This document shows positions 16,433 to 28,024 of a stretch of 39,041 nucleotides of DNA, one piece after another. This stretch comes from Candidatus Dojkabacteria bacterium (lineage in GTDB: Bacteria; Patescibacteriota; Dojkabacteria; J137). The stretch covers positions 1 through 39,041 of the forward strand of contig CALDYZ010000031.1 of the NCBI GenBank assembly GCA_937944235.1, given 5' to 3'. The notes beneath the pieces were generated by a model. The model was not told the DNA's origin. It ran no database searches and saw nothing but the letters and a program-made list of their open reading frames with translations. How positions within the stretch are numbered: position 1 is the stretch's first letter; every line of letters starts with the position of its first letter. Position numbers and translations under genes: made by a program.

Positions 16433-16534
16433 AAATATTTTTATTTAATTATAATCTTGACTAACATAATAATTAGTTTTTTTTAAAAAATAATAGGATT
16501 AATTTGATATTTTGAAATCTCAGGATAATATATG

Positions 16535-16543
16535 TGTTAGAAT
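16535..16543 (+). promoter_or_regulatory. Candidate extended -10 promoter P1 upstream of rpoB (TGtTAGAAT)
   Basis: TGn plus a 5/6 match to TATAAT. Confidence 0.35.
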
Positions 16544-16707
16544 GTAGCAAAATGTGAGTTAATAACACGACGTTTGGAAGACAGTTTTAATGGTTTTAGT
16601 TAAACCTCAAAAAAGAAAATATCAAAACGTAGTCCAGAAATAGAAAAAAGATCCACCTACTTTTAATAATTAAATTTAGTAATTATTCAAGGTGGTTGTG
16701 AAAATAA

Positions 16708-16716
16708 TGTTATAAT
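16708..16716 (+). promoter_or_regulatory. Candidate extended -10 promoter P2 upstream of rpoB (TGtTATAAT)
   Basis: Perfect TGnTATAAT immediately before a structured region. Confidence 0.5.
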
Positions 16717-17137
16717 GTTGTAGCTAGTTTAAGCTAAGGAAGCTGCTGAGTGGCGCTATTTTTTGTATTATTCATTAGCATAAACTACATAAGTTTGAGT
16801 AAATTGACATAAGTAGTATTATACACATGTCAAATATATGTAATGATAGAAATAATTTAACTTAGGGATTTAAGTTTGTGTGTTTCATGTGTTTGATTGT
16901 AATAAAATAATCAATTGTTGAGGTCTGTGCTTAATACATCTTTCAGAGAGCTGTTAATTATGAAAGTTGATCCTGATTCAGTTTTAGAATAGATAAACCT
17001 ACTTAAAAAAAATAAACTATTCAGAATTTTTATATTTTTTGTTGAATTCTGTGATTTATATTGTTAAAATAACCTGCAAGCATTATATTAATTCTGGTTT
17101 AATTGTACGGATTCGAAATACCTTAACCAATTTTATG

Positions 17138-17170
17138 AATTAGAACGTTTATAACGTTCTAATTTTTGTT
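17138..17170 (+). terminator. Intrinsic terminator-like hairpin in the rpoB leader
   Basis: aattagaacgtt-tat-aacgttctaatt, a perfect 12-bp stem running into tttgtt, about 50 nt before the rpoB ATG. Confidence 0.6.
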
Positions 17171-17217
17171 GCCTAATATTTAGACAACTTAAATTTAAAC
17201 TTTAATATTTAAATTTT

Positions 17218-20200
17218 ATGCTTGGAAATTACAGATTAAATGTAAAGCGAAGATATTTAAATTCTACCCCCGTAGGAACCTTGGAATTTGACCTTTTAGC
17301 TACTCAAAAACAATTGTTTAGAGAATTTGTAGAGAGAGGTTTTCAAGATCTTTTTGACGAAATAAACCCTGTTAATGATTATTCTAATTCTATATGGCAG
17401 ATTACATTTGAAGAATTTATATGGGGTCAGCCTAAATTTACATTTGCCGAAGCGCAAAACCTAGGTCAATCCTATGAAGCCCCTGTTTATTCGATAGTGA
17501 AATTAGTTAACAAGAAAACAGGTGAAATTAAAAAACAAAAGATTTACATTTGTGATGTTCCGCTGATGAGTGATAGGGCATCCTTTATGTATAATGGTAA
17601 TGAACGAGTTGTAATGTTACAAATTTTACGATCTGAAGGTTTGTTACTAGGAGAATCCAAAGCATCTACTCAAAAAAATAGATTGTACTCTGTAAAGTTG
17701 ATGCCGCAAAGAGGTAATTGGTATGAATTTGAACTAAACAAATATGGGGTCATGAGTATAAAACTTTTGCAAAAAAGACCAAGAATATTGCTTACCACTT
17801 TACTTAGGGCTATAGGATATAGTACTGATGATGAAATTAGAAAGGCTTTATCAGATGTTGATAATGGAGATATCAGTTTTGTTGAAGCAACTTTGGAAAA
17901 GGATGTAACTAAAAACACGGAAGAAGCTTTAATAGATATTTATAGAAAGTTAAGACCTGAAGATGCTGTATCAATAGAAAATGCAAGAAATCTAATCGAT
18001 TTAATATTTTTTAATAAAAGGAAGTTTTACCTAGGTAAGGTAGGGAGGTATAAGTTAAATAAAAAATTAGGTATTAATGATGAGATAACTCTTGATGATT
18101 ATTTGTTAAAGAAAAAGGATATTGTAAACATAATCAGATTATTAATTCAACTTAACAACGGACATGTTCCTCCTGATGATATTGATAGTTTACAAAACAG
18201 AAGAATTAGGGGAGTTAATGAACTTTTGTCTGAGAAAATGAGGGTAGGAGTGTTAGCTTTAGAGAAATCTATAAAAGATAAGATGTCGACTTTTTCACCT
18301 GATGATAAAGTTACGCCTGCTATGTTTATAAACACCAGACCAGTATCCTCAGCCATAAACCAATTTTTTGGAAGTTCAGCTCTGACAAGATTTATGGATC
18401 AGATAAATATTCTCTCAGAGCTGGAAGTTAAACGTAGAGTTACTGCAGGAGGAGCTAGAGGTTTAACTCCGGAGAGAGCTACTTTTTCAGTTAGGGATGT
18501 TCATAATTCCCATTATTCCAAATTTTGTCCAATTACAACGCCTGAAGGAACTTCGGTAGGTATGGTTAATCAATTAGCTGTTTACTCACGAGTAAATGAA
18601 TATGGTTTTTTGGAAGCACCATACAGACAAGTGATATCAGTTTTTAAAGTTAATGAGGATAATATTAATGATCCAGAGTTTCAGAACAGATATTTGGATA
18701 ATGATATAAAAGGTATAGCCAATAAAGGTGATGCTTTAACTCCTGAGATAGTAAGAAAATGTGTTGAGAAAAACATTGAAGAAATATACATACAACCATT
18801 TGTAAGTAATAAAAAGATAATGTATTTAGATGCAGATGATGAAATACATCACAAAATAGCCAACTATGATATAAAAATTGATCAGTATGGAAATATAATA
18901 GATGATTATGTTTATGTGAGGGACGGTCAAAATTACACAAAAGTTAAATTACACCAGATTGATTGTATAGATGTGAGTCCGGCACAAATAGCTGGACTAG
19001 GATTGGCTTTGATTCCATTTGCGGGTAATGATGATCCTAATAGAACTTTGGTTGCTGCTAAAACTCAGACGCAATCAGTTCCTCTCATCAAACCAGAACA
19101 GCCTATAATTGCTAGTGGTTTTGAGCATATTGCGGCTAAAGCTAGTGGAAGGACTGTATTTGCAGAATATGATGGTACAGTCGACTATGCAGATGCAGAT
19201 ACAGTTTTAGTAACATACAACACAGGTAAAGAAAACATAAAAAGAAAATACCTAGCTGAGAAATATGTACGAACTAACCAAGACACTTCGTTTAATCAAC
19301 AAGTAAAAGTACGCACTGGTATGGTGTTTAAAAAAGGCGATGTTTTAATCGATGGACCATCTACATTAGAAGGTGAATTGTCTTTAGGCGTGAATTTAAG
19401 GGTGGCTTATGTTGTGTATGATGGATACAATTATGAAGACGGTATAGTAATATCCGAAAGATTAGTAAAAGAAGATGTTTTGACTTCGGTTCACATAAAT
19501 GAGTATTCTCAAGAAATACGTGAAACTAAGTTGGGAGATGAAGAAATAACTCGAGATATTCCCAATGTTGGAGAATCACAGTTGAAAAATTTAGATGAAG
19601 AAGGGTTTGTTAGGATTGGAGCACATGTCAGCTCTAATGACATTCTTGTTGGCATTATAACACCTAAAGGAGAATCAGAATTAACTGCTGAGGAAAAACT
19701 TCTACGCGCAATATTTGGAGAATATGCGAGAGATGTAAAGGATAATTCTTTAAGAATGCCAAATGGAGAGCATGGTGTCGTAATTGGTATACAGGTTATA
19801 GATAAAGCAAAAGGAGGTAAATTGAACCCTGGTGTAATAAAATTAGTTAAGGTCTGGGTAGCAAAGAAGCATAAAATTTCAGTAGGTGATAAATTGACGG
19901 GTTACCATGGAGATAAAGGTATTGTAACTAAAATAGTACCAGAATATGATATGCCATACACTGAAGATGGAAAACCAGTTGACATATTACTTGGACCTGC
20001 CTCAATGATTAGAAGAATGAATTTAGGACAGATATTAGAAACACATCTAGCAAATATAGCTAAACAAAAAAATGAATTTTTAGTAGTCGAGCCGTTTTCA
20101 AGATATGAAACTAAAGGTTATATAAACGAAGCTAAACAGATGGGTATAAATACTGATCCTAAGTTTACATTGTATGATCCAAGAACAGGAGAGCCTTATG

Positions 20201-20739
20201 AAAATAAAATTACTGTAGGTTACAGATACTTTTTCAAGTTGAATCATCTTGCTGACGATAAAGTACATGCAAGATCTACTGGGCCGTATACTTTAGTTAC
20301 TCAGCAACCTGTAAGAGGAAAAGCACAAAAAGGAGGTAGAAGATTTGGAGAGATGGAAGTTTGGGCGCTAGAAGCTCACGGAGTTCCTAATTTACTGCAT
20401 GAAATGCTCACAATTAAATCAGATGATGTAGTAGGTAGGGCTGCTGCGTATAAGGCCATAATAACAAATCAAAAAATTAATCCTCCTAAGATTCCAGAGT
20501 CGTTCTCTGTATTAGAAAAAGAGTTATTAGGCTTAGGTATTAAACTTACCAAAATTGAACCTCAAGTTGATGATAGATTTGCAGATATGTCGTTGGAAGA
20601 AATAATAGATAGTATAGGTAATGTAGATGAACGTGAATTAGAAGAGAGTTCTGACTTTGAAATAAAAAATACTGACACTGCATTTTCTGAGTCTGAAGAG
20701 TTTTCAGATTTACAGATAAGAGATGTTAATTTTGAATAG
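17218..20739 (+). CDS. rpoB: DNA-directed RNA polymerase subunit beta (highly divergent)
   Basis: NGNERVV, VRDVH..HY...CPI.TPEG, GYNYEDG, GDKL.G.HG.KG, RMNLGQ, HARSTGPY, RFGEMEVWALEA. Confidence 0.99.
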   Translation: MLGNYRLNVKRRYLNSTPVGTLEFDLLATQKQLFREFVERGFQDLFDEINPVNDYSNSIWQITFEEFIWGQPKFTFAEAQNLGQSYEAPVYSIVKLVNKKTGEIKKQKIYICDVPLMSDRASFMYNGNERVVMLQILRSEGLLLGESKASTQKNRLYSVKLMPQRGNWYEFELNKYGVMSIKLLQKRPRILLTTLLRAIGYSTDDEIRKALSDVDNGDISFVEATLEKDVTKNTEEALIDIYRKLRPEDAVSIENARNLIDLIFFNKRKFYLGKVGRYKLNKKLGINDEITLDDYLLKKKDIVNIIRLLIQLNNGHVPPDDIDSLQNRRIRGVNELLSEKMRVGVLALEKSIKDKMSTFSPDDKVTPAMFINTRPVSSAINQFFGSSALTRFMDQINILSELEVKRRVTAGGARGLTPERATFSVRDVHNSHYSKFCPITTPEGTSVGMVNQLAVYSRVNEYGFLEAPYRQVISVFKVNEDNINDPEFQNRYLDNDIKGIANKGDALTPEIVRKCVEKNIEEIYIQPFVSNKKIMYLDADDEIHHKIANYDIKIDQYGNIIDDYVYVRDGQNYTKVKLHQIDCIDVSPAQIAGLGLALIPFAGNDDPNRTLVAAKTQTQSVPLIKPEQPIIASGFEHIAAKASGRTVFAEYDGTVDYADADTVLVTYNTGKENIKRKYLAEKYVRTNQDTSFNQQVKVRTGMVFKKGDVLIDGPSTLEGELSLGVNLRVAYVVYDGYNYEDGIVISERLVKEDVLTSVHINEYSQEIRETKLGDEEITRDIPNVGESQLKNLDEEGFVRIGAHVSSNDILVGIITPKGESELTAEEKLLRAIFGEYARDVKDNSLRMPNGEHGVVIGIQVIDKAKGGKLNPGVIKLVKVWVAKKHKISVGDKLTGYHGDKGIVTKIVPEYDMPYTEDGKPVDILLGPASMIRRMNLGQILETHLANIAKQKNEFLVVEPFSRYETKGYINEAKQMGINTDPKFTLYDPRTGEPYENKITVGYRYFFKLNHLADDKVHARSTGPYTLVTQQPVRGKAQKGGRRFGEMEVWALEAHGVPNLLHEMLTIKSDDVVGRAAAYKAIITNQKINPPKIPESFSVLEKELLGLGIKLTKIEPQVDDRFADMSLEEIIDSIGNVDERELEESSDFEIKNTDTAFSESEEFSDLQIRDVNFE

Positions 20740-20766: not shown

Positions 20767-23700
20767 ATGATAAAAGATTTTAAAGCTCTAAAGATTTCTA
20801 TAGCTTCTCCAGAAGAAATATTAGCAATGTCTCATGGGGAGGTTACTAAAGCAGAAACTATCAATTACAGGACTTTTAAACCCGAGCCGCAAGGCTTAAT
20901 GGCTGAAGAGATTTTTGGTCCTAGCAAAAATTTTGAATGTTATTGTGGCAAATACAAAAAAATAAGGTATAAAGGGATTGTTTGTGATAGGTGTGGAGTA
21001 GAAGTGACTCACAAGCGAGTACGAAGAGAGAGAATGGGACATATAAAACTGGCAGCGCCGGTTGCTCATGTGTGGTTTTCTAACGGAATACCAAACAAGT
21101 TATCTTTAATACTAGATATAACACCAAAAAAATTAGAGGCTATTGTTTACTACACTAGGTACGTAGTTACTGAAGTAGACCAATCAGCTAAAAAAGATAT
21201 TTTGAATAGTCTGCCTGATTTAAAAGCTCGTGAAATAGAAAAAGTAGACCAAGAAGCGGGTTCCAGGATATTAGAGATAGAGAATCAGTATGCTCAAGAA
21301 GTCGAAGAAATAAAAAAAGCATTCAAAGATAAAAAAAAGATTGATCTACAGTTAGTTACATTAGAAAAAAATAAAAATGAAGAAATAGCCAAAGTAAAAG
21401 CTGCCGCTAAACAAAAATTAAATACTCTTGAATCGAAATTTTCAAACATGAAGTCATTAATTGAATCTATTGAACCAAGGTCAACTTTATCAGAAGAGGA
21501 CGTACAACTATTGGATGAGTACGATCTTTATTTCTACAACACAGCAATGGGAGCCGAGGCATTGAAAGAAATTTTGGAGAAAATAAATTTAGATGATGAA
21601 ATTTCGGCTTTATCGAATGAATTAAACAAAACAAAGACGGATCTTAAAAAAATGAAGTTAATACAAAGATTGAGATTGTTAAAAGGTATGAAGAGGTCGG
21701 GAATAAGACCAGAATGGATGATATTAACTGTATTACCTGTCATTCCTCCAGACTTAAGACCAATAGTCCAGCTTGCTGGGGGCAGGTTTGCTACTTACGA
21801 TTTGAATGACCTATACAGAAGAGTTATAAATAGAAATAACAGGTTGCAAAGGTTAATAAATTTAGGAGCCCCTGAAATTATTTTGAGAAATGAGAAAAGG
21901 ATGTTACAAGAGGCGGTTGATTCTTTATTAGATAATAATCATAAACCTGGATCACCAGCTATGAGTTCAAAAGGTATTCCTTATAAGTCGCTTTCTGACA
22001 TGTTAAGAGGTAAACAAGGTAGGTTTAGACAAAACCTGTTAGGCAAGAGAGTGGATTATTCAGGTAATGCAGTGATAGTGCCTGGTCCAGAGCTAAATTT
22101 TGATCAATGTGGTATCCCAAAGGTTATAGCCCTAGAACTATTTAGACCTTTTATTTTAAGAGAACTTATACTGAGAGGTCACGCTCAAAATCCTACAAGA
22201 GCCAAATATATGTTAGAAAATCATGAAGATGTCGTTTATGACATTTTGGAAGATGTCATTAAAGGGCGACCAGTCTTGTTGAATCGAGCTCCAACTTTGC
22301 ATAAACAATCTATACTTGCTTTTTATCCAGTTTTAATTGAAGGTAATGCTATCAGGCTACATCCGATGACTTGTACTGGTTTTAATGCCGATTTTGACGG
22401 AGATCAAATGGCAGTTCATTTACCTTTGTCTGAAGAAGCTGTTATTGAGGCAAAAGAGAAGATGTTTCCAGTTAGTAATATTTTAAATTTAAGAGACAGT
22501 TCACCGATAGTGAGTGTGCAAAAAGACATGGCATTCGGTATATATTTTTTGACAAAAATGAATGAGCACAATGCAGAACAGAAGTATTATTTTAGCTTAG
22601 ATTCTTTGATTGCGGACTACTATAGGGGGAACATTAAGTTTTATACATGTCAAAAGGTTTTACACAAAGGAGAGTTAATATTGACATCTGCGGGACGAGC
22701 GATATTCAATAGCGCATTGCCAGATGATTTTGGATATGTTAATAAGACATTGAGTAAGTCAGATATCTCTAAAATATCAGCTGAGTTGTTTGATAGGTTT
22801 GGTAGTACGGTAGCAATACAAACTTTAGACAAGATAAAAAATCTTGGTTTCCAGTATGCAGGTAAATATGGGTTTTCGGTTGCGATGGATGAGTTTGATT
22901 TTGGATTAGACGATCAAATAAAAAAATTATATGAGGAATATGAAAAAAAATATGATTTCTATTCAAAAGATAGAGATGAGGGTTTTTTAACTGCTGCAGA
23001 AACAAAGCGGTTACAGAAGCAAGCTTGGGTCGAAACTGCTGAAAAGGTTCAAGAGATAGTATGGTCCAAAGCACAAGAAATAGGTACAAATTTTTTGGAT
23101 ATTCAAATGTCAGGAGCAGTACCTACAAAAGAGTACGTAAAAAAGATTTCTGGTACTGTAGGTGTGATTACTGATCCCACTGGTGGAATCGTAGATTTAC
23201 CGATGAAAAATAATTTCTATCTTGGAATGAGTAATTTTGAATATTTTGTAGCTGCTAAAGGAGCTAGAAAAGGTTTTGCTGATGTGGCATTAAGGACTGC
23301 TGACTCTGGTTACTTAACTAGACGTCTACATGAGTTAGCTCAAGATGTTATAACTATTCAACATGATTGTGGTACTGTAGAGGGGATAAAACTCTACAAA
23401 AAAGAGAAAAGAAGTATGAATTTTGCTCAAAGAATAAGAGGAAGGTACGTAACTCAAGATGTGGTTGGTACTGGTGGTAAGATTTTGGTTAGGAAAGGAG
23501 ATTTAATAAACAAGACGCTAGCATCTGAAATAGCAGAAGATGATGGGATAGAATTCGTTGAAGTGAGATCTCCACTAAAATGTAAAACACCTCACGGTGT
23601 GTGTACTAAGTGTTATGGCCAAGACAATGGAACAGGGCAGCTGGTTAATCTTGGGGTTGCAGTTGGTACTATTGCATCCCAATCTTTAGGAGAACCTTCA

Positions 23701-24621
23701 ACCCAGTTAACACTAAAATCAAAATCTGATGCAAGAGCAATGAAGACTGATGTAACACAGGGACTACCAAGACTCGAAGAATTGTTAGAAGTTAGAGATC
23801 CAAAGAGTCAGGCTACATTGTCAGAAATTTCTGGTAAAGTCGCCATTGTCAATGTAAAGGGCAAGATAAAAGTTAGAGTTACGGGAAATAGGGATGATGT
23901 ATTTGTTATTGATGTTAGTGAATATGATGTTAAGGTAGTGAACAGAGAAAAGGTTATTAAAGGGCAATTAATAGCAGTTAGTAATAAGAAAGAAATTTTA
24001 AGTCAGTATGATGGAATTGTGGAAATAAATGATAATAATTTATGCATAAGATATTCAATAAAAGATGAGGTAGAATATGAGGTTGACAACATAATAAATG
24101 TTTGCGTAAAAGATGGAGACATACTGGAGAGAGGTGATCCTATTACTTATGGATCTTTAAATCCAAAAGATCTCATGATTTTAAAAGGGGTAGAAGCAGC
24201 TCAGCGATACATAATTAATGAATCGCAAGCGATATACGGAGGAAATGGTATTGACATTGATGATAGACATTTAGAGATAATCTTGAAACAGATGACGCGC
24301 TTTGCTGTTGTTACGGATGGAGGTGATTCTGAGTTATATTACGCCGGTGATTACGTTGACAAAATAGATATAGCTCAGGAAAATAATAGGTTAAGTGCCG
24401 AAGGTAAAAAAACTATAGCTTACAGAGAAGAGATATTAGGTATTTCTAATGCAGCTTTGAAGACAGAAAGTTTCTTAGCAGCTGCGTCGTTCGAACAGCA
24501 GGTAAGGGTATTGACAGAGGCAGCGATACTGGGTAAAATAGACACATTACGTGGGTTAAAAGAGAACATAATAATCGGTAAGCCAATTCCTCTTGGACCT
24601 TATGTAGTTGAAGTTAAATAA
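20767..24621 (+). CDS. rpoC: DNA-directed RNA polymerase subunit beta-prime (divergent trigger loop)
   Basis: Zn ribbon (C.CGKYK...CDRCGVEVT), GKQGRFRQNLLGKRVDYS, NRAPTLH, NADFDGDQM, TADSGYLTRRL, SFLAAASF. Confidence 0.99.
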   Translation: MIKDFKALKISIASPEEILAMSHGEVTKAETINYRTFKPEPQGLMAEEIFGPSKNFECYCGKYKKIRYKGIVCDRCGVEVTHKRVRRERMGHIKLAAPVAHVWFSNGIPNKLSLILDITPKKLEAIVYYTRYVVTEVDQSAKKDILNSLPDLKAREIEKVDQEAGSRILEIENQYAQEVEEIKKAFKDKKKIDLQLVTLEKNKNEEIAKVKAAAKQKLNTLESKFSNMKSLIESIEPRSTLSEEDVQLLDEYDLYFYNTAMGAEALKEILEKINLDDEISALSNELNKTKTDLKKMKLIQRLRLLKGMKRSGIRPEWMILTVLPVIPPDLRPIVQLAGGRFATYDLNDLYRRVINRNNRLQRLINLGAPEIILRNEKRMLQEAVDSLLDNNHKPGSPAMSSKGIPYKSLSDMLRGKQGRFRQNLLGKRVDYSGNAVIVPGPELNFDQCGIPKVIALELFRPFILRELILRGHAQNPTRAKYMLENHEDVVYDILEDVIKGRPVLLNRAPTLHKQSILAFYPVLIEGNAIRLHPMTCTGFNADFDGDQMAVHLPLSEEAVIEAKEKMFPVSNILNLRDSSPIVSVQKDMAFGIYFLTKMNEHNAEQKYYFSLDSLIADYYRGNIKFYTCQKVLHKGELILTSAGRAIFNSALPDDFGYVNKTLSKSDISKISAELFDRFGSTVAIQTLDKIKNLGFQYAGKYGFSVAMDEFDFGLDDQIKKLYEEYEKKYDFYSKDRDEGFLTAAETKRLQKQAWVETAEKVQEIVWSKAQEIGTNFLDIQMSGAVPTKEYVKKISGTVGVITDPTGGIVDLPMKNNFYLGMSNFEYFVAAKGARKGFADVALRTADSGYLTRRLHELAQDVITIQHDCGTVEGIKLYKKEKRSMNFAQRIRGRYVTQDVVGTGGKILVRKGDLINKTLASEIAEDDGIEFVEVRSPLKCKTPHGVCTKCYGQDNGTGQLVNLGVAVGTIASQSLGEPSTQLTLKSKSDARAMKTDVTQGLPRLEELLEVRDPKSQATLSEISGKVAIVNVKGKIKVRVTGNRDDVFVIDVSEYDVKVVNREKVIKGQLIAVSNKKEILSQYDGIVEINDNNLCIRYSIKDEVEYEVDNIINVCVKDGDILERGDPITYGSLNPKDLMILKGVEAAQRYIINESQAIYGGNGIDIDDRHLEIILKQMTRFAVVTDGGDSELYYAGDYVDKIDIAQENNRLSAEGKKTIAYREEILGISNAALKTESFLAAASFEQQVRVLTEAAILGKIDTLRGLKENIIIGKPIPLGPYVVEVK

Positions 24622-24639: not shown

Positions 24640-25095
24640 ATGGCAAGAATATCACAATTAGTTAGAAAACCAAGAAAATCAAAGACTAAATTGGTTAGGT
24701 TTAAAGGTATAGATTTTAAAGAAAGTGTAAAGTATAAAGCATTGTATTTTAATTATAATGGAATAGAGAATACTTTTTATAAGAAGCCATCGCCTTTTAA
24801 AAGAGGAATTTGTGTCAGAGTATATACTCAAACACCAAAAAAGCCTAATTCTGCTATAAGAAAAGTTGCGAGAGTTAGGTTGTCCAATAGACAATTTGTA
24901 ATATCCTATATACCAGGTGAAGGACATAACTTACAGGAACATTCAGTAGTTTTAGTTAAAGCTGGAAGAAAACCTGATCTACCCGGTGTAAAGTATCAAA
25001 TAGTCAGAGGCGTTTACGATGCATCTCCTGTTGATAAAAGAAGGCAAGGAAGAAGCAAGTATGGTAGGTCTAAACCAAAAGACAATCAAAAATAA
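24640..25095 (+). CDS. rpsL: 30S ribosomal protein S12
   Basis: [40 protein letters not shown]. Confidence 0.98.
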
Positions 25096-25134: not shown

Positions 25135-25626
25135 ATGAGATCAAGAAAAGTAATTTATAGGACCCCAAAAAAAGATCATGTGTACGGAAGTGAATTAGTT
25201 GAAAAATTGATCAATTACGTAATGAAGAATGGTAAAAAATCGTTAAGTAGATCAATAGTTTATAAAGCACTTGAAGAACTTGGTAAAGCAGTCAAAAAGT
25301 CACCGCTAGAGGCTTTGGAGGTGGCTATAGAGAATGTCAAGCCCAAAATTGAAGTTAGGTCAAGGAGAGTAGGTGGCGCAAATTTACAAGTTCCAACGCC
25401 AGTAACGCAAAGAAGACAACTCTCTCTAGCAATGAGATGGATAGTTAATTTTGCCAGAACTAACAGAGTTAATACAGAGTATTGGTATTCATTAGCTAGA
25501 GAACTAATCTCTGCATATAATAAGGAAGGTGCCTCTTACAAGAAAAAAGAAGAGGTTCACAAAATGGCCGAGGCTAACAAGGCATTTTCACAGTTCGCTT
25601 TAATTGAAGATAAGTCTTTGCAATAG
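25135..25626 (+). CDS. rpsG: 30S ribosomal protein S7
   Basis: INYVMKNGKKS, EVRSRRVGGANLQVP, KKKEEVHKMAEANKAF. Confidence 0.98.
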   Translation: MRSRKVIYRTPKKDHVYGSELVEKLINYVMKNGKKSLSRSIVYKALEELGKAVKKSPLEALEVAIENVKPKIEVRSRRVGGANLQVPTPVTQRRQLSLAMRWIVNFARTNRVNTEYWYSLARELISAYNKEGASYKKKEEVHKMAEANKAFSQFALIEDKSLQ

Positions 25627-25808
25627 ATACAAGTAATCAAATAATAGATAAATTTACTTACACAGCAATTCCTTATTTATAGTTTGTTCTAGGTTTGCAT
25701 ATCTTTTTTTGAACATTTTTTAGCTAAAAAAAGTCTGAAATTATTACTATTTTTACAAAAACAAATTAAAAAAAGTACGTTACTGGCTGGAGAGATCCCT
25801 TCTAAGAG

Positions 25809-26270
25809 TTATTGATTATTCTCACTATTAACTGTGTCATTTGAAACATTTGTACTGTGAGAGTCTATTACCCCAGCTTCAATTAGGTCTTTACTTGGCT
25901 CACTATAGGCCACAGTCTTTCCTTTTTTTACATTCATTGAATTTTTACCCTGTCTGCCCCTAATAAAATATAGTTTAGATCGTCTCACAGGTTCAACTTT
26001 TAAAATTTTGATAGACGATACTGTTGGTGAATAGAATGAAAATATTTTTTCAACACCACAACCGTTGCTTATCTTTCTTACTGTGAAAGTTTTATTAACT
26101 CCACTTCCTTTTATGGCTATCACTAAGCCGTTAAACTTTTGAATTCTTGATTTGTTACCATCCCTTATTATCGTATCTACAGATATAGTATATCCGACTT
26201 TAATCTCAGGAAAAATCTTTTTATAAACTTCTTGTTTATCTGTAAATTTCTTAATTAGTGCAGTGTTCAT
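25809..26270 (-). CDS. rplS: 50S ribosomal protein L19 with C-terminal extension
   Basis: G...RIQKFNGLVIA, TFTVRKISNGCGVEKIF..YSP, VRRSKLYFIR. Confidence 0.96.
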   Translation of the reverse strand: MNTALIKKFTDKQEVYKKIFPEIKVGYTISVDTIIRDGNKSRIQKFNGLVIAIKGSGVNKTFTVRKISNGCGVEKIFSFYSPTVSSIKILKVEPVRRSKLYFIRGRQGKNSMNVKKGKTVAYSEPSKDLIEAGVIDSHSTNVSNDTVNSENNQ

Positions 26271-26284
26271 AATAGTATAATAAA

Positions 26285-26488
26285 CTATCTTCTTCTACTA
26301 AATTTCTTGTTTTTTACTATTGATACAGTTCCAAATTCACTGCTAACCGTAAGTTTGTATCTACCTTTAATTCTTCTTCTTCTTAGAACCTTTTTGCCAT
26401 CAGAAGTTGAGTTGCGCTTCATAAAACCAAATTTCCGTATTCTCCTGATTTTACTAGGTTGATAGGTAGGTCCTTGTGTCTTAGCCAT
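26285..26488 (-). CDS. rpmH: 50S ribosomal protein L34 with C-terminal extension
   Basis: [40 protein letters not shown]. Confidence 0.95.
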
Positions 26489-26513
26489 AATTATTGTTTA
26501 TAATGCATTTAGC

Positions 26514-26542
26514 ATTATATATTTTATGCTTGGAAAAGTCAA
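26514..26542 (-). promoter_or_regulatory. Sigma-70 promoter for rpmH-rplS
   Basis: TTGACT-17 nt-TATAAT on the minus strand. Confidence 0.75.
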
Positions 26543-26549
26543 AATAATT

Positions 26550-26578
26550 TTGCAAATAATATCGAACTTAATTATACT
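26550..26578 (+). promoter_or_regulatory. Sigma-70 promoter for ORF 26621, back-to-back with the rpmH promoter
   Basis: TTGCAA-17 nt-TATACT. Confidence 0.6.
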
Positions 26579-26620
26579 AATAAACAATAGTAGTGGCGCT
26601 ATTCATCAGTTTTTATTTAA

Positions 26621-28024
26621 ATGGCAGAGGAAAAAACTAACAATACATCATTATTTTTTAGCGAAGATTTTGATAATAGTAAGAAACAAAGTGAGAAAGA
26701 TTCAATTTCATTGCAGTATCAGCTTAAAAATTCTACTTTAATTAATTTGATTTCATCCAAATATTTTTATTTTTTCCTCGGCATAGTATCCATTTTACTG
26801 ATAATCATAGGTGGTGTAATTTTATCAAATGTATTTTTATCTGGTATACCAGTAAATTACTCATACAATAAAAACAAATTTTTGAATACTCAGGAGGAGA
26901 CAGTCTATATCTATGAAGAGAAGATTGACAATGCTGTCAATCCGGAATTTTCCTTAACACCGGTTAAACAAAAGATACATGTACCGAATGACTTTGTCTA
27001 TTTATTAGGTAGTAATTCTTTACTAAAAGGATCAAGTAAAATATATAAGATTTTTCCTCAAAGTCAGCAAGTTTATTTTTCATCTGGCAAAAATATTGTA
27101 GATTTTTTGATCTACGAAAATGAACTGATGATTTATGTATCACAGAACCAACAATTTCAACAATTATGGTTCAGAGATGAATCATATGAATCGATTTTAC
27201 TCTATACAACGGATTCAAATGAAAGAGTTTTATCTTTTGTAATTGATTTTAATAATTTATCTGTATTTTTTCTATCCGTAAAAGACTCAATAATCACATT
27301 AAACAGAATCGACAGAAGTATCAATCACAAATCTGTAAAAATTTTAGGCAGTTTATCGACCAGATCTAAAATTACTGAAATTGACAATGATGAAGTTTAT
27401 ATTATAGATGAAGAAATTTGCTATAAAATGCCTTTAAAAGATCTAATTTTGAGTGAAGTTGCTTGCGAAAAAACAAAAAAACATCTGGGAGAAAAGGTTT
27501 TTAAAATCAGGCCAAAGTTAAGGAATAACTATACGAGCAATGATGGCTCTGTAATACAAATGTACAATCCTGACATCGACAGTTATGTGAACTTATTCAA
27601 TGCACCTCAAGGAGATTTATATATTCAACAATTTTTAAATAATAACAAGATTTTGTTATTAAAATATAAATTTCAATTTAATGCTTATTTAAATAGATTT
27701 GATCCAATTTGGCAGTCTTTTGTATTATTTGACTATAATGCCAAGTCATTGCAGAACTTGGCTAGTTCATTACCAAAGTCGAATTCAGTACTTGAAAACA
27801 TAAAGATCTTTCATGTTGTTGATAGCTTATACGCGATTGATTTAAATGTTACAGACAAATTGTATAGGTATGATCCTAATAATGCAGTTTCGAATTTATC
27901 CTTACCGTCTACTTCCTTATCTCAATCTCAACACACAAATAGCCACTGGTTGGAAATAGATTTTATCAATGCAGAGAATTATGAGAAATTAACTGTGTTT
28001 GATCCTGTAAAAATATTTATATAG
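26621..28024 (+). CDS. Single-TM hypothetical protein with a large beta-rich external domain
   Basis: 467 aa; TM about aa 48-73, followed by repeated short beta-strand patterns (possibly propeller-like). Confidence 0.75.
   Translation: MAEEKTNNTSLFFSEDFDNSKKQSEKDSISLQYQLKNSTLINLISSKYFYFFLGIVSILLIIIGGVILSNVFLSGIPVNYSYNKNKFLNTQEETVYIYEEKIDNAVNPEFSLTPVKQKIHVPNDFVYLLGSNSLLKGSSKIYKIFPQSQQVYFSSGKNIVDFLIYENELMIYVSQNQQFQQLWFRDESYESILLYTTDSNERVLSFVIDFNNLSVFFLSVKDSIITLNRIDRSINHKSVKILGSLSTRSKITEIDNDEVYIIDEEICYKMPLKDLILSEVACEKTKKHLGEKVFKIRPKLRNNYTSNDGSVIQMYNPDIDSYVNLFNAPQGDLYIQQFLNNNKILLLKYKFQFNAYLNRFDPIWQSFVLFDYNAKSLQNLASSLPKSNSVLENIKIFHVVDSLYAIDLNVTDKLYRYDPNNAVSNLSLPSTSLSQSQHTNSHWLEIDFINAENYEKLTVFDPVKIFI

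Follow-up and report, generated by a model that had tools for sequence, protein, structure and literature searches.

Our data show that the sole housekeeping RNA polymerase of a Candidatus Dojkabacteria (WS6, Patescibacteria) bacterium has a trigger loop with serine in place of a histidine that is called universal (E. coli H936) and Ala-Arg in place of the Gly-Gly hinge. Its β' gene, rpoC, lies at 20767..24621 (+) of the 39,041-nucleotide stretch of DNA that was analysed (the window), is translated without a stop into 1284 aa, and matches TIGR02386 over its full length with 1305 bits against a curated cut-off of 963.5, as expected of an RpoC family member. Within it the loop and its flanks, SLGEPSTQLT-LKSKSDARAMKT-DVTQGLPR, occupy 23680..23772 (+), and the in-frame bases 23713-23748 specify LKSKSDARAMKT, preceded by GEPSTQLT (aa 975-982) and followed by DVTQGLPR (aa 995-1002); on this the translation and the alignments agree with a preliminary description of the same DNA. 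Two alignments, one to solved β' chains (7l7b_D, 6wvj_D; phmmer, ungapped) and the other to E. coli K-12 RpoC (MAFFT), give the same equivalences, M932>L983, R933>K984, T934>S985, F935>K986, H936>S987, I937>D988, G938>A989 and G939>R990, so that both replacements first read by position are recovered by two methods. Ser987 is encoded by TCT at 23725..23727 (+), while Asp988-Ala989-Arg990, at 23728..23736 (+), stand in place of I937-G938-G939, the last two of which form the Gly-Gly hinge.

The loop fits the canonical bacterial one (E. coli TQLTMRTFHIGG; SI3-less B. subtilis and Clostridioides TQLTMRTFHTGGVAG.DITQGLPR) without gaps and, as had been noted for Bacillus-type enzymes, is as long as that of the solved SI3-less enzymes of the same protein family. 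The flanks GEPxTQLT and D.TQGLPR are common to both, Q929 and T931 are kept, and so are all metal and ribose ligands, whereas His936>Ser, Ile937>Asp, Gly938-Gly939>Ala-Arg, Phe935>Lys, Met932>Leu and Arg933>Lys set it apart, together with changes in the F-loop, the bridge helix and β 681-687. Since the His and the Gly-Gly are conserved features of RpoC but not defining ones, its assignment to the family stands. Some phage and prophage two-barrel RNA polymerases lack a trigger loop and most β' domains; the window, in contrast, encodes a full-length β' with a loop of normal length.

The Mg-binding NADFDGD (aa 540) and the ribose-contacting NRAPTLH (aa 506) are intact, and D460, D462, D464, R425 and N458 are each found in 59/59 proteins of the order. 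Upstream lies rpoB (17218..20739, +; 1173 aa; NF001616 1206 bits, TIGR02013 1198 bits), directly 3' of rpoC comes rpsL (24640-25095, +; TIGR00981 170.8 bits), and then rpsG (25135-25626, +; TIGR01029 184.7 bits), so that both motifs and the rpoB-rpoC-rpsL-rpsG order described at the outset were found again by profile matches. A search for a second copy gave one rpoC match in the window's own genome; 60 relatives, three of which have single-contig genomes (G001, G005, G009), likewise gave a single match apiece. This bears out the view of this gene as encoding the housekeeping enzyme.

The loss of the canonical motif, which it had been proposed to map over Patescibacteria, was followed in the order and its sister families: TQLTL[KQ]xKSxAR is present in 31/32 genomes of the window's order, the single miss being masked, and in 0/189 genomes of the 20 sister families. 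The same loop occurs in 60 of the 120 best-listed homologue protein clusters, some of them named Candidatus Dojkabacteria (WS6), and no His lies within 15 aa on either side of the loop in any of these 60 proteins. In 59 full-length proteins of the order L932, K933, K935, S936, D937, A938 and R939 are each invariant (59/59), and positions 928-939 are almost wholly so, although only 23% of RpoC columns in this set are invariant and 77% vary. The codons beneath are free to change: at 29 loci Ser936 is written TCT14, TCA12, TCG1, TCC1 and AGT1, so that TCN and AGT codons for Ser both occur, and Arg939 as AGA24, CGT3, CGA1 and CGC1. Elsewhere position 939 is G16/A4 in the sister families and G in 55/55 other Patescibacteria.

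Only 10 β' positions are specific to the order, and 936, 937 and 939 are three of these, so the lineage-specific loop changes are H936S, I937D and G939R. Among 55 His-keeping other Patescibacteria L932 is found in 38, K933 in 24 and K935 in 51, and Leu occupies β' 932 in 18/20 sister-family sequences. The preliminary interpretation thus holds in part: conservation across synonymous codons speaks for a rewired loop, but M>L, R>K and F>K, being common where the His is kept, do not set this lineage apart. In a FastTree phylogeny of RpoC the order is monophyletic (support 100) and nested among the His-bearing families f5, f8, f9, f10, f13 and f14, whose loops already have Arg or Lys at 937-940 (e.g. 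LNTKHLAGRAG), which makes a nearby basic residue older than the loss of the His. Judged from alignment, codons and tree, the loop is a derived, order-wide version, evidently fixed under purifying selection.

The surroundings of the loop have changed as well. In the window's rpoB the equivalents of R678, E813, D814, K1065, K1073, R1106 and H1237 are intact, and across the active site the substrate and metal ligands, NADFDGD, R425, N458, Q929 and T931 of β' and R678, K1073, R1106, E813 and D814 of β, are all kept. The β i+1-site motif at 19042..19074 (+) reads RTLVAAKTQTQ by alignment (E. coli R678-Q688 is RALMGANMQRQ), with M681>V, N684>K (19060-19062), M685>T (19063-19065) and R687>T. Among 21 rpoB sequences of the order residue 684 is K19/R2, 685 is T21 and 687 is T9/N9/G3, whereas 20 sister-family sequences have N17 at 684, M16 at 685 and R12/K6 at 687. 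At the level of the order NMQRQ has become KTQxQ, and the changes in β as a whole are N684K, M685T, R687T/N/G, M681I/Y/V and R1069F/Y; these β-subunit changes did not figure in the preliminary description. In β' the F-loop region (23119..23160, +) aligns with Val785 at E. coli R731, Tyr790 at Q736 and Val798 at R744. Throughout the order R731 is replaced by V/T/I (59/59), Q736 is Trp in 52/59, R744 is kept in just 25/59 and R352 in only 28/59. The bridge helix has Val840 at T786 (23284..23286, +), V in 57/59 of the order; sister families have T10, V4, I3, K2 and R1. The i+1 NTP site includes β 681 and 684 as well as β' T786 (10.1101/106906). In the closed complex T786 contacts the base of the NTP, and the trigger loop, once closed, has the F-loop packed onto it; the leaving PPi is bound by R731 (PMC13198411).

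We also considered a pairing between loss of R731 and a basic residue at 937-942 in sister families, which is suggestive in f5, f9, f10, f13 and f14; it was dropped as evidence because 3/5 sequences that keep a basic 731 have a basic 937-942 too. A GreA-type gene is present in 32/32 genomes of the order.

Loss of the His is not confined to this order. In a survey of 401 genomes of the phylum a further 15 loops, spread over six other Patescibacteria families, had Q, R, K, N, I or A instead of His, and none was found in a 301-genome control of another phylum. The His-less loops of housekeeping rpoC genes read MRTFQ/R/K (f77), MRTVN (f134), MKTFQ (f65), MRTFQ (f48), MDSKR, MKSKI and AVSSVKA (f29), LHGKR (f93) and LRTFY (f15). 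Unlike in the Dojkabacteria order, the Gly-Gly hinge is retained almost throughout (the exceptions are Ala-Gly in f15 and a very divergent loop in one f29 genome), the replacements are mostly residues of known tolerance (Q, K, R), and there is no fixation across an order: f77 and f134 each have more than one outcome inside the family, which still includes a His-keeping member. Where rpoB could be read (f77, f134, f48, f93) the β motif is canonical or nearly so, f93 having NMQTQ; in 5/6 f29 genomes rpoB was not found directly upstream of rpoC at the offsets examined. Change of NMQRQ as a general partner of His loss is ruled out by this canonical motif.

Whether the trigger-loop His serves as an acid or as a positional catalyst has been debated for a decade. 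E. coli H936Q has only minor effects (Mishanina 2017 as cited in PMC13198411), and among the yeast substitutions H1085L/Q/K/R/Y (PMC5127505; PMC12391331) H1085L is healthy and the K/R variants are viable but sick (PMC5127505). Such mutants back a positional and not an acid-base role, in which Gln or Leu, and to some extent Lys or Arg, can stand in for the His; H1085S is mentioned nowhere in the available text of PMC5127505. These are, however, single laboratory changes, while in Dojkabacteria the Ser has become fixed naturally, alongside some ten other changes in the active site. A natural likeness is plant RNA polymerase IV, a multisubunit enzyme whose NRPD1 is reported to have Ser898 at the invariant His position (PMC11343019). 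Working next to Pol II as a specialised paralogue, Pol IV has also lost the other residues with which the loop contacts the NTP, whereas the Dojkabacteria enzyme is the cell's only RNA polymerase, with one rpoC per genome, and the rest of its loop is highly conserved. In Deinococcus and Thermus catalysis and intrinsic cleavage are adjusted by naturally occurring loop variants, and GreA overrides the loop differences; these variants (I937T, G1136M) fall outside the catalytic positions and leave the His in place, unlike in Dojkabacteria (PMC4756841).

We put at about even the chance that the Dojkabacteria loop is still a positional catalyst, with Lys or Arg contacts replacing the phosphate contact of the His. 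The loop would fold onto the incoming NTP and relocated basic side chains would take over that contact, the candidates being Arg990 (E. coli 939, one helical turn past 936), Lys984 and Lys986 (933 and 935) and, as a further possibility, β Lys615 (684). Lys had been suggested before as the substitute; Arg990 appears to be at least as good a candidate, and K933 and K935 are also found in His-bearing relatives and are thus not specific compensations. With Ala-Arg for Gly-Gly the first trigger helix would be expected to stiffen and the balance between open and closed states to move, proofreading may lean on GreA, and, as was already suspected, speed, fidelity, pausing and cleavage may be altered. 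In the E. coli enzyme it is the F-loop and not the NTP towards which the G939 backbone and the A940 and A941 side chains point (PMC13198411), so Arg at 939 may instead serve the interface between loop and F-loop. It should be noted that the F-loop partners at 736 and 744 have changed too, and that plant Pol IV, also with Ser here, has its loop off the NTP (PMC11343019); both observations were counted against an NTP contact.

There is a different and rather unlikely reading, in which the site is relaxed in the manner of Pol IV and the loop stays off the NTP, giving a slow, GreA-dependent enzyme with weak NTP binding and ready backtracking. A slow-growing organism with a reduced genome would tolerate a poor enzyme, and genomes of the order measure ~0.7-1.6 Mb. 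In Pol IV the loop makes no GTP contact, and affinity and incorporation efficiency are 6-7 fold lower (PMC11343019). Several other changes in the NTP/PPi site (β' R731, T786V, β 681/684/685/687, the frequent loss of R352), the long branch of the window's RpoC (0.66 versus a median of 0.26, FastTree) and the presence of GreA in every genome of the order would all fit. However, a loop idle towards the substrate should drift, yet 928-939 is almost invariant where most columns vary; the residues gained (D937, R939, β K684, T685) are specific and not random; and the NTP-reading Q929, T931 and L932 are kept.

It is improbable, though compatible with either of these mechanisms, that natural inhibitors such as nucleoside-analogue or loop-binding antibiotics reshaped the i+1 site and the loop, after which catalysis was tuned afresh to the residues gained. 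Differences between the order and its sister families lie at β 681, 684 and β' 786, and in 10.1101/106906 pseudouridimycin resistance sites are β 565, 681, 684 and β' 786, while selectivity against the human enzymes involves β 677, 681, 684 and β' 932. But the case is a positional coincidence: the Leu at β' 932 is shared by most sister sequences, β E565 is unchanged in 21/21, and the other His-less Patescibacteria retain the canonical NMQRQ. Less probable still is supply of the missing group in trans during synthesis by a secondary-channel factor, e.g. a Gre-like paralogue. Some genomes of the order have 2-4 GreA-domain matches (e.g. G007, G012, G013, G015), but the window's own genome and most of the order have a single one, and His-keeping sister families have as many copies or more; to our knowledge, no mechanism of this kind exists for nucleotide addition.

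An artefact (misassembly, compensated frameshift, pseudogene or a second, unexpressed copy) has a negligible chance and is already refuted as far as sequence data permit: although the source is a marine metagenome bin of 75 contigs and 78.6% completeness, the same loop recurs in separately assembled genomes and in 60 protein clusters, the ORF is intact, rpoC is single even in closed genomes, and an independent contig has no indels. This contig, assembled by Logan from run X1 (probably the source sample), covers 23300-24100 with a single A>G at 23944 and so supports the sequence across the loop, a check on which had been called for; coverage by runs X2 and X3 is limited to 23300-23476. The other reading frames of 23700-23760 hold no MRTFH-like peptide, which together with the continuous ORF rules out a frameshift. 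A search of genome contigs for related loci returned only an unrelated SAR86 contig, which served solely as the way into a control phylum.

Returning to positional catalysis with relocated basic residues, we hold a broader version of it tentatively, its chances being somewhat below even: all transcription in Dojkabacteria would proceed through a differently wired i+1 site, with the positive charges at the NTP phosphates and the leaving pyrophosphate moved from β' His936 to Arg939 and from β Arg687 to Lys684 and β' Arg731 lost, and the His would have been replaced at least seven times in Patescibacteria. If so, the trigger helix would close by other contacts without the Gly-Gly hinge, which would change the enzyme's rate, fidelity, pausing and response to inhibitors, and the Patescibacteria replacements would form a set of mutants made by nature that bears on the positional-catalyst model.

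Structural and genetic papers of 2024-2026 describe the trigger-loop His as universal or invariant in all multisubunit RNA polymerases (PMC13198411; PMC12391331; PMC11343019). No description of a His-less loop of this kind was found in the literature searched, although trigger-loop haplotype supplements (1403 and 182 bacterial loops) might contain His-less sequences. An order whose only RNA polymerase has Ser at this position, together with six more His-less Patescibacteria families, implies that cells can live without the trigger-loop His. Nature has already tried the need for it, with Ser and a nearby Arg in the sole enzyme of an order, and the natural sequences reveal which accompanying changes evolution picked. 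With them the positional-catalyst model and the epistasis between loop, F-loop and the β wall of the i+1 site are now testable, and for Patescibacteria filters based on an 'invariant residue' and arguments from inhibitor-target conservation fail.

The rpoC gene (20767–24621, + strand) is a single open frame of 1284 aa that matches the TIGR02386 rpoC equivalog model with 1305 bits (cut-off 963.5). Its trigger loop, TQLT LKSKSDARAMKT DVTQGLPR, is encoded by bases 23701–23772. Both a phmmer alignment without gaps to the solved SI3-less β′ chains 7l7b_D and 6wvj_D and a MAFFT alignment that includes RpoC of E. coli K-12 place Leu983, Lys984, Ser985 and Lys986 on E. coli M932, R933, T934 and F935, and Ser987, Asp988, Ala989 and Arg990 on H936, I937, G938 and G939. 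Together with the translation, they bear out in all details the preliminary description of the loop, in which Ser takes the place of the catalytic His; as it also said, the NADFDGD and NRAPTLH motifs are unaltered and rpoC stands with rpoB, rpsL and rpsG. All four genes lie on the + strand (rpoB at 17218–20739). By each defining test this is a normal RpoC, and it departs only in a feature regarded in the field as invariant: papers of 2024–2026 call the trigger-loop His universally conserved or invariant (PMC13198411, PMC12391331, PMC11343019).

The usual rplKAJL genes do not precede rpoB; their place is taken by gatB, a gene resembling PduO-type adenosyltransferases and two ORFs that match no Pfam family. 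In the 785 nt directly 5′ of rpoB (16433–17217) there is neither an ORF of at least 35 aa nor a tRNA, and nothing there reaches an Rfam gathering score. After rpsG, fusA and tuf are absent (25627–28024), and rplS on the opposite strand (25809–26270) is followed by a 467-aa ORF (26621–28024) with no NCBIfam or Pfam match.

The enzyme had been taken for the housekeeping one, and the search for a second rpoC agrees: the window's own genome (78.6% complete, 681 kb in 75 contigs) gives one rpoC match, and a 200-aa query centered on the loop finds exactly one per genome in 60 relatives, among them G001, G005 and G009, which are single contigs. The sole RNAP of the cell is one whose RpoC has a His-less loop. 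A back-translated pattern, TQLTL[KQ]xKSxAR, run on the 221 species genomes that make up the GTDB class, is present in 31 of 32 from the window's order (family f1, 25/26 plus the own genome; family f2, 5/5) and in 0/189 genomes of the 20 other families. The sole miss, G006 (locus L021, G006:C1), has four loop codons read as N and is not scorable; its remaining loop and flanking residues are Ser-type. Among the 120 best-listed homologues from a 5.8-billion-protein collection, 60 carry the Ser-type loop (59 full length, several named Candidatus Dojkabacteria, that is candidate division WS6, by NCBI), and none of these 60 has a His in the loop or within 15 aa on either side of it. Amino acids at 928–929, 931–932, 935–936 and 938–939 are constant across 29 loci while codons differ (Ser936: TCT14, TCA12, TCG1, TCC1, AGT1; Arg939: AGA24, CGT3, CGA1, CGC1). 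Over 59 proteins just 23% of the RpoC columns do not vary, yet nearly all of the first loop arm is invariant. These alignments show strong purifying selection on the loop. As to read support, a Logan contig of the marine metagenome X1 covers the stretch without an indel and differs by a single substitution, which lies outside the loop; X1 is probably the source sample, so this contig is not independent of it. With the 31 of 32 genomes, the synonymous codons, the single copy and the X1 contig, misassembly, frameshift, pseudogene and second copy are ruled out as far as sequence data allow.

We placed the change on an RpoC tree made with FastTree, whose 52 rows are one in three sequences of the order (20, the window's among them), all 20 sister-family sequences, one in five of the other Patescibacteria sequences, and E. 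coli. On it the Ser-type sequences form a single clade (support 100), nested, again with support 100, among His-bearing families f5, f8, f9, f10, f13 and f14, whose loops read L[D/N/H]xKH with a basic residue at 937–940 (e.g. LNTKHLAGRAG, LDSKHLAARAG). The change therefore has a single origin, at the base of the order, in a loop that already carried Arg/Lys about one turn past His. Neither reading of the alignment, ungapped (H>S, G939>R) or shifted by one residue (ARA kept and His deleted), leaves a His. The window RpoC has a long terminal branch within the order (0.66 changes/site versus a median of 0.26). Many Patescibacteria loops read L-N/D-T/S-K-H-x-A/S-G (sister-family loci L054–L073, proteins P0060–P0121). 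Leu and Asn for Met and Arg is the archaeal/eukaryotic trigger-loop pattern.

Not all substitutions listed in the preliminary description belong to the lineage. H>S and G939>R are order-specific; Leu932 (38/55), Lys933 (24/55) and Lys935 (51/55) are frequent in other Patescibacteria that keep His, so M>L, R>K and F>K are phylum background. A comparison of 59 β′ sequences of the order with 20 of sister families and 55 of other Patescibacteria left only 10 order-specific positions (conserved in ≥90% of the order, essentially absent elsewhere) out of about 1284, and Ser at 936, Asp at 937 and Arg at 939 are three of them. Around the closed loop are placed further changes typical of the order: F-loop Q736>W (52/59), R744 (retained in just 25/59), L746>Y/S/F, bridge-helix T786>V (57/59), R731>V/T/I (59/59, Arg731 being already gone in most sister families) and R352, which is R28, N27 and S4 in the order (Asn434 in the window, 22066–22068) and Arg in 20/20 sister and 55/55 other sequences. 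The β subunit changes too: when 21 rpoB from the order are set against 20 from sister families, the highly conserved GANMQRQAVP (E. coli 682–691) becomes GAKTQ[T/N/G]QAVP in the order, with K19/R2 at 684 (sisters N17), T21 at 685 (M16), T9/N9/G3 at 687 (R12/K6), I11, Y8, V1, M1 at 681 (M16) and F11/Y10 at 1069 (R13). β R678, K1073, R1106, E813, D814, K1065, H1237, E565 and Q688 are kept in 21/21, and substrate, ribose and metal ligands are intact in the Ser-type RNAP. A preprint on pseudouridimycin names β 681, β 684 and β′ 786 as i+1 NTP-site residues (10.1101/106906), and in the text on a 2026 Michaelis-complex structure T786 contacts the NTP base, H936 the β-phosphate, R731 binds the departing pyrophosphate and the F-loop packs against residues 936–941 (PMC13198411). 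The order-specific changes cluster in and around the i+1 site, and with both subunits altered there, the loop change is therefore part of a coordinated remodeling of that site.

Loss of His is not confined to this order. In a survey of 401 genomes drawn evenly across the phylum, the pattern G[E/Q]xxTQ#x#xxxH matched 360 (including one unpublished genome, G368), matches here and in the control not being inspected singly and a few listed ones being plainly chance. Two of the 41 misses are Ser-type (G000, the own genome, and G001) and one (G035) keeps His in SQLTLNSKH; a protein search of the other 38 gave 15 without His, 12 with it (some with a one-residue insertion), one unreadable and 10 without a match. 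Mapping the loops across Patescibacteria, as had been proposed, thus finds His absent in at least 17 of the 390 readable genomes of this sample, over seven families. The other loops, all in housekeeping rpoC, are MRTFQ, MRTFR, MRTFQ and MRTFK in four f77 genomes, MRTVN in three of f134, MKTFQ in one of f65, MRTFQ in one of f48, MDSKR (two genomes), MDAKR, MKSKI and AVSSVKA in f29, and LHGKR in one of f93 (loci L117–L133, L140; genomes G556, G455, G482, G303, G568, G532, G469, G377, G246, G454, G440, G567, G519, G412, G343). Additional to this count, G050 of sister family f15 (L046/L068) has Tyr, so that replacements outside the order are Q, R, K, N, I and A in six families of the sample and Y in one sister-family genome. 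Families f77 and f134 each have a relative still with His. In the control, 293/301 genomes of the phylum holding a SAR86 genome matched (including one unpublished genome, G896); none of the eight misses was shown to be without His, seven giving no loop match with the query and one being a contig-end fragment. The Gly-Gly hinge is kept in nearly all other His-less lineages (f15 has Ala-Gly, one f29 genome a very divergent loop), and β NMQRQ, where readable, is kept unchanged in f77, f134 and f48, with NMQTQ in f93. By comparison the Ser-type Dojkabacteria loop is the most extensively rewired, and all readable genomes of the order have it. G455 (f77) also has a second, weak match to the trigger-loop region (G455:C19:1489–1860, L144, E 1.7e–13) inside a 2862-aa open frame, which could be a fused or mobile-element polymerase.

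The loop may well still close over the NTP and work as a positional catalyst. With Ser too short for the phosphate, that contact would probably come from Arg990 and/or Lys984 with Lys986, possibly helped by β Lys615 (E. coli 684), and Ala-Arg for Gly-Gly should favor helix formation and alter loop dynamics. We put this account as a whole at an even chance. A positional role agrees with two mutant results: H936Q has little effect in E. coli, as cited in PMC13198411, and yeast H1085L/Q is viable (PMC5127505). GreA-domain genes are present in 32/32 genomes of the order (G000:C53 in the own genome). In the E. coli enzyme, according to PMC13198411, position 939 is turned toward the F-loop, so Arg990 might serve the F-loop interface instead. 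The main rival, which we regard as unlikely but a serious contender, is a Pol IV-like state: plant Pol IV also carries Ser at this position, its loop stops short of the NTP and its efficiency is 6–7 fold lower (PMC11343019). The near invariance of positions 933–939 in the order argues against a loop without function. Natural i+1-site inhibitors as the selective driver, compatible with a closing loop or a Pol IV-like one, seem improbable to us.

Full-text literature searches (CPR, Patescibacteria, Dojkabacteria) found no description of His-less bacterial trigger loops, although the large loop alignments of PMC12391331 and PMC10827151 could include some unremarked. The His-less loop of Dojkabacteria is apparently undescribed. 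The finding, tempered by earlier mutants from which it was already known that His is not essential for chemistry, is of clear interest for transcription enzymologists.
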